Below are positions 47,586-48,596 of a DNA stretch of 64,000 nucleotides, piece after piece. Within the stretch, counting starts at the first letter, position 1, and the number at the start of each line of letters is the position of its first letter. The DNA lies in contig NZ_LR882967.1 in the NCBI RefSeq assembly GCF_904830925.1, positions 3,362,106 through 3,426,105 of the forward strand, in the 5' to 3' direction. The notes below the pieces were generated by a model. It did no database searches. It was not told the DNA's origin and saw only the letters and a list, made by a program, of their open reading frames with translations. The position numbers and the translations under genes are program-made. This DNA is from Planktothrix pseudagardhii. GTDB lineage: Bacteria; Cyanobacteriota; Cyanobacteriia; Cyanobacteriales; Microcoleaceae.

Positions 47586-48596
47586 ATGCCTAGTCCTTCA
47601 GACTTTGGAATTAATCTTAGTTCTATTAACTATCAAGCGGCAGGTAATAAGATTGTTGCTGGTAACAATGATCCTACTTTTTGGTGTACTGAATTTGCTT
47701 ATGGTCGTGCAATTGAAAAGGGATTATTTCAAAATAATCAAGGTTTCGGAGCCAAATACTTTGGTAATGCTGGCTACTGGGATGATAATTTGGGAGGATG
47801 GACTCGTCAACCCCAAACTAATAGTTTTGTGGTTTGGGATCCCGGGCAAGCGGGAGCCGGTTCTGTCGGTCATGTAGGTTTTGTGGAACGAGTTAATTCT
47901 GATGGTTCATTCACTTTATCAGAAGCCAACTGGGCGGGACAATATTTTAACTCTCGCACTGTATATCCTGGAACAACTGCATTTAATAGTGCGAAATTTG
48001 TACCGATAACAGGTGGAACAACTCCACCTCCAGGGGGAACTCCTACATCTGGCAACGATAATATTACCGGAGGTGCAGGTAACGACAATATCAATAGTTT
48101 AGCTGGAAATGACACTGTATCAGGAGCAGCAGGAAATGATACCCTAAATGGTAATAGTGGTAACGATCAACTATTTGGCAATGATGGGAATGATTCATTA
48201 CTAGGTTGGACAGGAAACGATACCGTAACGGGTGGTAATGGTAACGATGTCTTAGATGCCTTTTATTACAGTGGTCTTGGTGGTAATGGAGAAATTGATT
48301 ACTTAAGAGGAGATGCAGGTGTAGATACCTTTGTGATTGGAGATTATTACGGCAAAGGTTACTTAGGAAATGGTCATGCTGTCATTGAAGATTTCAACTG
48401 GCGGGATGACTATATCAAAATCCAAGGTAGTTTAAGTCAATATGCCCTTAAGCCTGGCAATCTTTACGGCTATTCTGCTAATGATACTGCAATTGTTTTA
48501 AGCAGTAATAATAGTGAAGTATTAGCGATTGCTCGTAACGTATCCACAGCTAATAGTACAATCCGCTATTCTTCATCTGATTTTCTTTCAGCTTAA
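47586..48596 (+). CDS. CHAP-domain peptidase fused to RTX calcium-binding repeats (candidate T1SS-secreted cell-wall hydrolase)
   Basis: CHAP Cys/His signature (FWCTEFAYGRA ... GSVGHVGFVERVNSDGSFTLSEANW). RTX repeats follow (GGAGNDNINSLAGNDTVSGAAGNDTLNGNSGNDQLFGNDGNDSLLG...). No N-terminal signal peptide. Confidence 0.7.
   Translation: MPSPSDFGINLSSINYQAAGNKIVAGNNDPTFWCTEFAYGRAIEKGLFQNNQGFGAKYFGNAGYWDDNLGGWTRQPQTNSFVVWDPGQAGAGSVGHVGFVERVNSDGSFTLSEANWAGQYFNSRTVYPGTTAFNSAKFVPITGGTTPPPGGTPTSGNDNITGGAGNDNINSLAGNDTVSGAAGNDTLNGNSGNDQLFGNDGNDSLLGWTGNDTVTGGNGNDVLDAFYYSGLGGNGEIDYLRGDAGVDTFVIGDYYGKGYLGNGHAVIEDFNWRDDYIKIQGSLSQYALKPGNLYGYSANDTAIVLSSNNSEVLAIARNVSTANSTIRYSSSDFLSA

Follow-up and report, generated by a model that had tools for sequence, protein, structure and literature searches.

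What might a protein with a peptidoglycan hydrolase head, a calcium-binding RTX tail and no signal peptide be doing among genes for STAND NTPases? The question is raised by a gene, here called CHAP-RTX, at positions 47586 to 48596 of a 64-kb stretch of Planktothrix pseudagardhii DNA (contig NZ_LR882967.1, positions 3,362,106 to 3,426,105; the whole stretch is referred to below as the window). Our analysis indicated that the product is very probably a peptidoglycan hydrolase exported in the manner of RTX proteins. Judged from alignments, it represents one allele within a polymorphic family of the Oscillatoriales, and its transcription is probably under the control of a divergently transcribed STAND NTPase carrying a helix-turn-helix (HTH) domain.

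The gene and its parts are arranged as follows.

47586 to 48596, plus strand: complete CHAP-RTX open reading frame (ORF), 336 amino acids (aa) plus stop codon, with the sequence of CUR34215.1/WP_072720684.1.
47586 to 48011, plus strand: CHAP (peptidase C51) head, aa 1 to 142, recognized by Pfam, by an alignment of 22 homologues, by alignment with the solved structures 5t1q and 9eum, and by an AlphaFold2 (AF2) model searched with Foldseek.
47685 to 47687 (Cys34), 47871 to 47873 (His96), 47922 to 47924 (Glu113) and 47928 to 47930 (Asn115), plus strand: CHAP catalytic codons, from the alignments.
48012 to 48047, plus strand: Pro/Thr/Gly linker GGTTPPPGGTPT, aa 143 to 154, predicted to be disordered (predicted local distance difference test score [pLDDT], <50), and the breakpoint of head/tail recombination.
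48048 to 48263, plus strand: eight canonical RTX nonapeptides, aa 155 to 226, a parallel beta-roll according to Pfam, the strands of the AF2 model and matches to RTX blocks.
48264 to 48593, plus strand: degenerate RTX turns, beta-sandwich cap and presumed uncleaved type I secretion system (T1SS) signal, aa 227 to 336, from alignment, AF2 and Foldseek.
48576 to 48593, plus strand: extreme C terminus SDFLSA, with D332-F333 invariant in the family.
48607 to 48644, plus strand: hairpin with a perfect 9-bp stem (ATGGGGTGA...TCACCCCAT), 11 nt past the CHAP-RTX stop codon and without a T-run.

A preliminary description of the locus had read this ORF as a CHAP domain joined to RTX repeats without a signal peptide, inside an island of STAND genes. 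Its coordinates, Pfam domains, motifs and missing signal were all borne out, as was the setting, with STAND NTPase genes at 42474 to 43586, 45624 to 47396 and 48744 to 50147. The start codon is the first one past an in-frame stop codon, such that an N-terminal extension is impossible, and AGGAG lies 8 nt upstream of the ATG. The protein is a 100% match to Planktothrix tepida CUR34215.1/WP_072720684.1, which the databases label either "Iron-regulated protein FrpA" or "CHAP domain-containing protein"; the FrpA label is a misnomer that merely mirrors the RTX repeats. The pI is 4.2, and the sole cysteine is the nucleophile, Cys34. The N terminus is polar, a search for Sec, Tat and lipoprotein signals in the protein found none, and there is no hydrophobic segment, the maximum Kyte-Doolittle(19) value across the whole protein being 0.68. 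The conserved N-terminal sequence MPSPSDFGINL also precedes the CHAP core internally in paralogues of ~570 aa that combine CHAP with SH3 domains, and it therefore belongs to the CHAP module and is no targeting peptide. The GC content of the gene (40%, versus 38.5% for the window) suggests that it may be native. The hairpin downstream is likely to mark the end of the transcript; it received no intrinsic-terminator score and is not a canonical terminator. An Rfam scan of the CHAP-RTX leader and 3′ region returned nothing meaningful.

Pfam placed CHAP (PF05257) at aa 31 to 115 (E = 2e-15; score, 57.5 bits; cutoff, 26), with WCTEFAYG at aa 33 to 40 and GHVGFVE at aa 95 to 101. Across the 22 full-length homologues, C34, H96 and E113 were invariant and N115 was conserved in ≥90%, and the four residues aligned with the Cys/His/Glu-Asn of the solved CHAP domains 5t1q (a Staphylococcus aureus amidase) and 9eum (the tail lysin of phage phi812). 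The Cys...His pair noticed at the outset was thus retained under careful alignment to homologues and structures alike, and the catalytic set is intact; it is the Cys-His-Glu-Asn tetrad of CHAP domains described for SSP0609 (PMC6403190). In the AF2 model (mean pLDDT, 77; 74 to 89 over aa 31 to 140), the head adopted a papain-like alpha+beta fold, which Foldseek matched to 5t1q with a root mean square deviation of 2.4 Å over 114 columns and also to 2k3a and the phi812 tail lysin. On this basis, the head would be expected to cut peptidoglycan stem peptides as an amidase or endopeptidase.

In the tail, Pfam reported HemolysinCabind (PF00353; E = 4.6e-18; score, 65.3 bits; cutoff, 23), and eight consecutive nonapeptides of the form xxGNDxLxG in perfect register were followed by two to three degenerate turns. 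The AF2 model consisted of the CHAP fold, a disordered linker, a strand every nine residues and a C-terminal beta domain; its top structural matches were CyaA RTX block V, the S. aureus CHAP amidase, the Pseudomonas MIS38 lipase and serralysin-type proteases, and the sequence of the RTX part matched the RTX blocks of CyaA, HlyA and lipases in the PDB. The RTX part and cap resembled the PML lipase as well. The run of GGxGxD repeats and the 110 aa that follow it stood as first reported, with the refinement from AF2 and Foldseek that those 110 aa continue the beta-roll and supply a cap, like their counterparts in CyaA block V, serralysins and lipases, together with the presumptive signal, forming no separate domain. 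The predicted structure of the C terminus, which had been expected to bear on a T1SS signal, showed beta-roll and cap; a region of ~60 aa where such a signal would lie is present and ends like the other RTX proteins of the window, and T1SS signals have no consensus against which it could be scored.

T1SS substrates of the RTX class carry an uncleaved C-terminal signal, fold in a Ca2+-dependent manner outside the cell and have no periplasmic intermediate (Linhartova et al. 2010, PMC3034196), and cyanobacteria encode many RTX proteins (PMC3034196). Because CHAP-RTX is acidic, has one Cys and no signal peptide, carries a T1SS-like beta-roll and cap, and has an invariant D-F-x-x-x end (...SSSDFLSA, with Asp-Phe unchanged across the 22-homologue alignment), we infer that T1SS export is the most economical reading. 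The window also encodes two giant RTX/cadherin/Big_9 proteins of 2155 aa (11072 to 17539, minus strand) and 1211 aa (17685 to 21320, minus strand), which contain 10 to 15 HemolysinCabind stretches and which no transporter gene adjoins. They too lack N-terminal signal peptides, and they end in ...DDIILF and ...SDFVII, respectively, which suggests that CHAP-RTX and the two giant proteins may use a common export route in this organism.

Full-length relatives of CHAP-RTX (42 to 78% identity) were found only in filamentous non-heterocystous cyanobacteria (Planktothrix, Microcoleus, Floridaenema, Laspinema and Microseira). Members with ≥90% identity occur in P. rubescens and P. agardhii, and in one P. 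agardhii strain the gene is broken into fragments of 103 and 226 aa. The C-terminal half of CHAP-RTX is 83 to 96% identical to that of proteins of ~380 aa in which the N-terminal half is an M23 metallopeptidase, and at the DNA level an M23-RTX gene matches the stretch from linker to stop codon (48012 to 48598) with 89.8% identity, all similarity ceasing at both of its ends. Overall, the heads found on this tail were CHAP, M23, Amidase_6 or none (tail-only proteins); a tail-only homology search for further head types added 11 short tail or headless proteins and nothing else. Like CHAP-RTX, the M23-RTX and Amidase_6-RTX relatives have polar N termini and lack signal peptides.

Related loci that we fetched are identified here by L-numbers (L129, L130 and L136 being metagenome contigs). 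Comparison of L092 (Phormidium) with L004 (Floridaenema) revealed flanks of 94 to 96% identity and tails of 96% identity, such that only the head differed (M23 in one, CHAP in the other); the swapped stretch ran from the ribosome-binding region to the linker. Similarly, two Planktothrix agardhii-type genomes with flanks 96 to 98% identical carried an M23 head with a long tail (L001) and a CHAP head with a short tail (L087). By these alignments, the RTX tail is a constant module that accepts CHAP, M23 or Amidase_6 heads; one head replaces another at syntenic loci, and the breakpoints fall at the linker. A variable toxin domain on a constant trafficking module is what defines polymorphic toxins, and the family shows this arrangement with the polarity reversed, the constant part being the C terminus, as expected because the trafficking signal is C terminal. 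The fact that CHAP, M23 and Amidase_6 are all peptidoglycan hydrolase families argues strongly for peptidoglycan as the substrate.

We then considered what lies upstream. The features needed here are the following.

47397 to 47585, no strand assigned: divergent intergenic region of 189 bp between the STAND and CHAP-RTX genes, with sigma-70-like hexamers on both strands.
47413 to 47433, minus strand: 21-nt element GATCTCAACTGATCTTGACAA, with GATC repeats and TTGACA, 16 to 20 nt upstream of the STAND start codon; candidate −35 element or operator.
45624 to 47396, minus strand: divergent STAND NTPase, 590 aa, with an XRE-like HTH N-domain containing an insertion and the P-loop GMSGIGKT (Pfam nSTAND1, NB-ARC and AAA_16).

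A divergent upstream STAND gene was present in 11 of the 14 genomic contexts of hydrolase-RTX or tail-only genes (the window, L001 to L003, L087/L088, L089/L012, L013, L090/L091, L093/L094, L124, L125, L126/L127 and L128), as well as in three metagenome contigs. The background was at most one STAND among ~165 other flanking genes listed at the same loci. The partner STANDs belong to at least five lineages, with cores only 22 to 30% identical between lineages, and the pairing is therefore not inherited synteny. Their N-terminal 70 to 170 residues differ between loci even where the NTPase cores are orthologous, and yet they are HTH-like in all cases: GerE/LuxR (L090, E = 3e-8; L124), HTH_VMAP-M9 (PF26355; L001 and L128), or an XRE-like class that includes both of the STANDs flanking CHAP-RTX in the window. 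When a profile of six XRE-like sequences was compared with the PDB, XRE-family HTH proteins alone came out on top (PezA, E = 0.006; HipB; an MBF1-like protein); a single-sequence AF2 model of this N-domain had a pLDDT of 52 and was not used. Weak NCBIfam similarity of the neighbouring STANDs to AfsR and MalT was also seen.

A second observation on these proteins concerns the middle/TPR part, which is unalignable between strains whose flanks are 96 to 98% identical and whose hydrolases are 100% identical (L001 7784 to 8307 versus L087; L087 7159 to 8075 versus L088). To judge from this divergence, it is a hypervariable sensor region. We also considered coupling of the STAND N terminus to the effector C terminus through amyloid motifs of the BASS type, which are known from the preprint of Dyrka et al., and rejected it: the N termini are HTH-like domains of 70 to 170 aa where short motifs would be needed, and nothing in them matches the hydrolase tail.

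The GATCTCAACTGATCTTGACAA element, discovered by blastn-short, occurs once in the window, where chance would give 0.02 occurrences. Of the 128 loci fetched, only L012, L089, L125, L126 and L127 had it; all have the same class of STAND N-domain, on NTPase cores of two different lineages. A metagenome scan gave eight matches, consisting of three new independent contigs, the L125 contig again and four unrelated chance matches, and each of the new contigs (L129, L130 and L136) had the same STAND N-domain beside a CHAP- or M23-RTX gene. This is how a promoter or operator belonging to a particular HTH would be expected to behave, which stops short of proof of binding. Furthermore, the break in homology between L001 and L087 starts within the STAND gene and ends shortly after the stop codon of the hydrolase, taking in the N-domain codons, the intergenic DNA and the whole hydrolase gene. 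As these two loci align, a single cassette is exchanged that comprises the STAND output domain, the promoter region and the lysin gene. In the window, the last 13 nt of the intergenic region (AGGAGAACAATTT) are identical to those upstream of the L001 M23-RTX gene. It was from the recurrent adjacency, the co-replacement as a cassette and the conserved upstream element that we arrived at probable control by the STAND protein.

The remaining genes around CHAP-RTX in the window are as follows.

44090 to 45646, minus strand: Ser/Thr kinase with TPR, 518 aa, overlapping the 3′ end of the divergent STAND gene by 23 nt.
48744 to 50147, plus strand: downstream STAND NTPase, 467 aa (PCC9214_02785), with a compact XRE-like N-domain, from Pfam and homology to L087.
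50150 to 51487, plus strand: TPR protein directly 3′ of the downstream STAND gene in another frame, a split NB-ARC/TPR arrangement as in L124.
42474 to 43586, minus strand: third STAND NTPase, 370 aa, with an N-domain of the HTH_VMAP-M9 type, its N terminus being 32% identical to the L001 STAND N-domain (PF26355).

The core of the divergent STAND is 31 to 35% identical to, and groups with, those of the STANDs beside M23-RTX in L090 (Planktothricoides) and L126. The window and L126 also have the order STAND then kinase-TPR in common, and the two kinases are 40% identical over their full length (E = 8e-118); the window kinase matches the PADLOC models for the antiphage kinase PD-T4-6 through its kinase domain (E = 2e-79). 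The downstream STAND is 26% identical to the L087 STAND from residue 1 (E = 3e-27), and its N-domain is of the class found beside the P. agardhii CHAP-RTX gene. We rejected the idea that the window STANDs are in situ orthologues of the P. agardhii STAND, as their cores, at 22 to 24% identity, are of different lineages. NTPases of the NB-ARC type and TPR proteins occur as separate ORFs twice in the window, adjacent to one another at 48744 to 50147/50150 to 51487 and parted by a phytase-like gene (41283 to 42431) at 42474 to 43586/39824 to 41149; such split ORFs are either two-gene systems or decayed genes.

Taken together, these observations suggested a chain of events in which a STAND protein, activated through its sensor part or through partners (TPR, WD40 or kinase-TPR proteins), would bind the intergenic region and switch on the lysin gene. 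The RTX tail would stay unfolded in the low-Ca2+ cytoplasm, leaving the producer safe, until an unlinked ABC-MFP-TolC type I system recognized it and exported the protein across both membranes in one step. Outside the cell, the lysin would fold on binding Ca2+ and attack the walls of other bacteria around the filament. The complete chain, that is, a T1SS-exported, Ca2+-activated lysin under STAND control with an antibacterial role, is in our estimate evenly balanced between being right and being wrong.

Several points weigh against this scheme. On the side of export, no ABC, HlyD/MFP or TolC gene came to light when every ORF of ≥100 aa in the 64-kb window was compared with Pfam and the flanks of ~17 related loci were read, whereas RTX loci usually include their own transporter genes (PMC3034196). 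The claim of T1SS export made in the preliminary description therefore fared unevenly: the intrinsic features of the protein all fit, and the cognate transporter genes that usually lie in the same locus did not appear. With T1SS signals lacking a consensus that can be scored, export is a conclusion from these features only. As to the target, an enzyme released outside the cell cannot reach the peptidoglycan of intact Gram-negative cells, which may limit the range of bacteria that it could attack. There is no cognate immunity gene either, in that 47397 to 47585 and 48597 to 48743 contain no ORF and none is conserved in the related loci, although such an absence would suit a protein that does no harm before Ca2+ outside the cell has folded it.

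On the side of regulation, the argument proceeds from gene order, and the HTH assignment of the N-domain of the divergent STAND in the window depends on a profile match of E = 0.006. Three of the 14 contexts have no STAND, namely Floridaenema/Phormidium (three tandem Ser/Thr kinases upstream), Laspinema (a mobile region) and Microseira. Both of the STANDs flanking CHAP-RTX are short or split and have no sensor repeats on the same polypeptide. In addition, the exact protein encoded by 45624 to 47396 and homologues of its first 222 aa were absent from a collection of 5.8 billion proteins in which both of its neighbours were present. This gene may carry another annotated start or a pseudogene call, and the coupling of STAND to CHAP-RTX may have decayed in P. 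tepida.

Small ORFs of three unrelated kinds do occur at related loci: an acidic peptide of 64 to 66 aa, GRDP-like proteins (159 and 203 aa, the longer one in L013) and an exported protein of 88 to 90 aa. We rejected them as immunity genes, since they are not head specific and are absent from the window. The exported protein has a clear signal peptide (MKNLLSVGTFILLGVVGSACPA...) and is encoded between the STAND and hydrolase genes, beside CHAP and M23 heads alike. An N-terminal peptide, MPEQYKGYDRDRTEDIEQRNGEV..., heads both the acidic ORFs and the 159-aa GRDP-like protein, again between STAND and hydrolase. Their positions are as follows.

L126 5407 to 5673; L127 1588 to 1854; L129 6482 to 6748; L130 8241 to 8513; L136 471 to 737: signal-peptide protein of 88 to 90 aa.
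L125 2774 to 2971; L126 4982 to 5176; L089 9298 to 9777 (N terminus): ORFs beginning with MPEQYKGYDRDRTEDIEQRNGEV.

Signs of rearrangement were seen at several places. In L093, an Amidase_6-RTX gene (3189 to 3980) that remains divergent to an XRE-HTH/NB-ARC/TPR STAND is truncated inside the tail, directly upstream of two transposase-family ORFs (DUF772 and DDE_Tnp_1_2; 4110 to 5548) that may have interrupted it. In the window, a gene for a 747-aa protein without a Pfam match (21809 to 24052, minus strand) lies next to CemA (24130 to 25539, plus strand); orthologues of the pair (53% identity) are found directly 3′ of hydrolase-RTX genes in Floridaenema and Phormidium, and their position 23 kb from CHAP-RTX in P. 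tepida implies that the locus has been rearranged. Mobile-element genes are scattered through the window (serine recombinase, 1321 to 2616, plus strand; DDE_3 transposase, 8000 to 9037, plus strand; OrfB/TnpB, 62367 to 63614, minus strand), consistent with a plastic genomic region. The last of these, an IS605-type TnpB gene, adjoins a gene at 57244 to 62235 (minus strand) for a 1663-aa single-module polyketide synthase with the unusual domain order KS-AT-ACP-luciferase-like monooxygenase-thioesterase.

The preliminary description had left CHAP-RTX as an effector, a bacteriocin-like killer or a lysis component. Sequence does not separate these options; what the present work adds is the swapping of heads and a link to STANDs that has recurred in evolution and is not incidental. 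Of the competing accounts, self-lysis or programmed death deserves the most attention, although we think it unlikely. In this account, an NLR-like STAND protein senses phage or damage and turns on the hydrolase, which destroys the wall of the cell itself or of its neighbour in the filament, leading to abortive infection or to the formation of sacrificial cells (necridia) at which filaments break. The tight and recurrent linkage with STANDs, with PD-T4-6-like Ser/Thr kinases and, in L126, with a TPR-CHAT protein would be explained, because such neighbours are hallmarks of conflict and cell-death systems in multicellular bacteria, in which peptidoglycan-peptidase effectors have been noted (Kaur et al. 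2020, PMC7159879). The hypervariability of the STAND sensor regions between strains and the restriction of the family to filamentous cyanobacteria point the same way. However, an enzyme that has no signal peptide and a T1SS-type tail would bypass the periplasm, the very site of the cell's own peptidoglycan, and the neighbourhood encodes neither a holin nor any other partner able to breach a membrane. The HTH N-domains imply a transcriptional output, which is slow for abortive infection, and PADLOC has no known defence model for CHAP-RTX, giving only weak P-loop-level matches to the STANDs.

It is decidedly unlikely, in our view, that the adjacency has no regulatory meaning and that the lysin is expressed alone, STANDs being merely abundant in variable islands. 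Cyanobacteria do have many STAND paralogues (Kibby et al., preprint), and the three contexts without a STAND and the truncated or split look of those in the window are what this account would predict. It does not explain why 11 of the 14 contexts have the same divergent orientation, with STANDs of five or more unrelated lineages and a background of no more than one in ~165 flanking genes, why N-domain, intergenic DNA and hydrolase are replaced as a single cassette, or why GATCTCAACTGATCTTGACAA recurs with the same arrangement in independent metagenome contigs.

We rate as improbable a housekeeping role, in which the RTX tail would anchor an autolysin or surface protein to the outer membrane, S-layer or sheath, and the enzyme would remodel the producer's own envelope during gliding, sheath turnover or septum processing. 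The RTX proteins of cyanobacteria include the S-layer and motility proteins oscillin, SwmA and Sll1951 (PMC3034196), the RTX R-modules of AlgE epimerases, which were among the fold matches, bind polysaccharide, and the closest CHAP paralogues have wall-binding SH3 domains in place of the tail. A housekeeping gene would hardly be so patchily distributed, however, or have alleles that are interchangeable between strains of one species; this one is split in a P. agardhii strain, exists in a headless version and is located in a variable island. Moreover, peptidoglycan is not exposed at the producer's surface.

Action of the head as a cysteine protease or amidase on some target other than peptidoglycan, for example as a toxin against eukaryotic grazers with the delivery of a classical RTX toxin, seems very improbable. 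Peptidoglycan is the only substrate common to CHAP, M23 and Amidase_6, the nearest relatives of solved structure are wall hydrolases from staphylococci and phages, and there is no pore-forming or acylation module. These facts outweigh the observations that RTX proteins are often anti-eukaryotic toxins (PMC3034196) and that CHAP belongs to the papain-like superfamily, which includes proteases. Finally, a remnant endolysin or tail lysin of a decayed prophage is barely credible and we rejected a phage origin: an N-terminal CHAP is typical of phage lysins (PMC6403190) and integrase, Bro-N and AcrVA2-like genes surround the Laspinema homologue, but the CHAP head was unmatched by tblastn in 50,697 phage records (the sole match being a 51-aa RTX-like stretch), CHAP domains in IMG/VR were distant (≤44% identity over short stretches) and never joined to RTX, the window contains no phage structural or lysis genes, and conservation across Planktothrix species is ≥90%.

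Leaving these alternatives, we return to the exported lysin under STAND control. A bolder version of it can be offered only tentatively, as we would not expect it to hold in full: STAND and lysin would form a two-gene module resembling humoral immunity, in which an NLR-like STAND with an interchangeable HTH detects invaders (for example, phages, non-kin filaments, or bacteria that are epibiotic or predatory) and induces a divergent, polymorphic, Ca2+-activated T1SS lysin, with output domain, operator and lysin travelling as a cassette. If the reading is correct, peptidoglycan hydrolases would join the activities that are exported as RTX proteins, and cyanobacteria would have a way of releasing a lysin safely without an immunity protein, because the lysin would lack its fold in the cytoplasm and acquire it from Ca2+ once exported. 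The head-swapping alleles at fixed loci would then mean that Planktothrix, which forms blooms, and Microcoleus, which forms mats, keep a diversifying wall-degrading arsenal, with consequences for how filaments deal with attached bacteria and competitors. To our knowledge, most bacterial STAND/NLR proteins studied to date have a fused killing domain. Multicellular cyanobacteria have hundreds of STAND/NLR-like genes, and an HTH-STAND protein with one easily assayed target gene would be a tractable system for learning what such proteins sense and how they signal.

How, then, does CHAP-RTX compare with known systems? The neighbouring STANDs resemble the STAND-type transcription regulators (MalT, AfsR/SARP and GutR) in that, as in MalT and AfsR, an HTH-like domain is combined with a STAND NTPase and TPR or WD40 repeats, although the two flanking CHAP-RTX in the window have no repeats on the same polypeptide, and they share hypervariable N-terminal domains with Avs, bNACHT and the systems of Kaur et al. 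2020. Unlike those NLR-like systems, they have an N-terminal HTH output of the XRE, LuxR or VMAP-M9 kind and no fused enzymatic effector, and their presumed target is one divergent gene for a secreted lysin. The Tse1/Tae effectors of type VI secretion systems are, like CHAP-RTX, papain-like Cys-His peptidoglycan hydrolases that are polymorphic between strains, and they are used on rival bacteria. They differ in being injected into the target periplasm and in always being accompanied by periplasmic immunity (Tsi/Tai), whereas CHAP-RTX has no injection apparatus and no head-specific immunity gene. The RTX bacteriocins (rhizobiocin RzcA and relatives) are T1SS-exported, antibacterial RTX proteins (PMC3034196), as we propose for CHAP-RTX; they range from 48 to 439 kDa and their mechanism is not established, whereas CHAP-RTX is a 35-kDa protein with a defined, predicted muralytic head.

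The closest parallels come from two other classes. The RTX exoenzymes (serralysin/AprA/PrtC and the Pseudomonas MIS38 and Serratia lipases) share with CHAP-RTX an N-terminal catalytic domain, a Ca2+ beta-roll, a cap and, presumably, an uncleaved C-terminal signal, together with terminal acidic and hydrophobic residues, an acidic pI and the lack of an N-terminal signal. CHAP-RTX departs from them in its peptidoglycan hydrolase head, which is exchangeable between strains, and in having no linked transporter genes. A 2010 review of RTX proteins (PMC3034196) contains no mention of peptidoglycan and does not list hydrolase activity against it among RTX proteins. Modular lysins (lysostaphin, zoocin A, LysK and the cyanobacterial CHAP-SH3 proteins of ~570 aa) have a CHAP or M23 head, a linker and a C-terminal module and are shuffled at the linker, just as CHAP-RTX is, and the heads of the CHAP-SH3 paralogues are 60 to 66% identical to that of CHAP-RTX and share its Cys-His-Glu-Asn set. 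In CHAP-RTX, by contrast, an RTX beta-roll replaces SH3b or LysM, and export would take the T1SS route in place of Sec or a holin; no RTX partner is listed in a review of wall-hydrolase architectures (PMC6403190). Databases annotate the hydrolase-RTX proteins by domain only, and neither RTX-linked peptidoglycan hydrolases nor their pairing with STANDs are mentioned in the RTX review, the wall-hydrolase review, the papers searched on bacterial NLR-like systems or the results of targeted literature searches. CHAP-RTX, for which we found no described precedent, combines the class of RTX exoenzymes with that of modular lysins.

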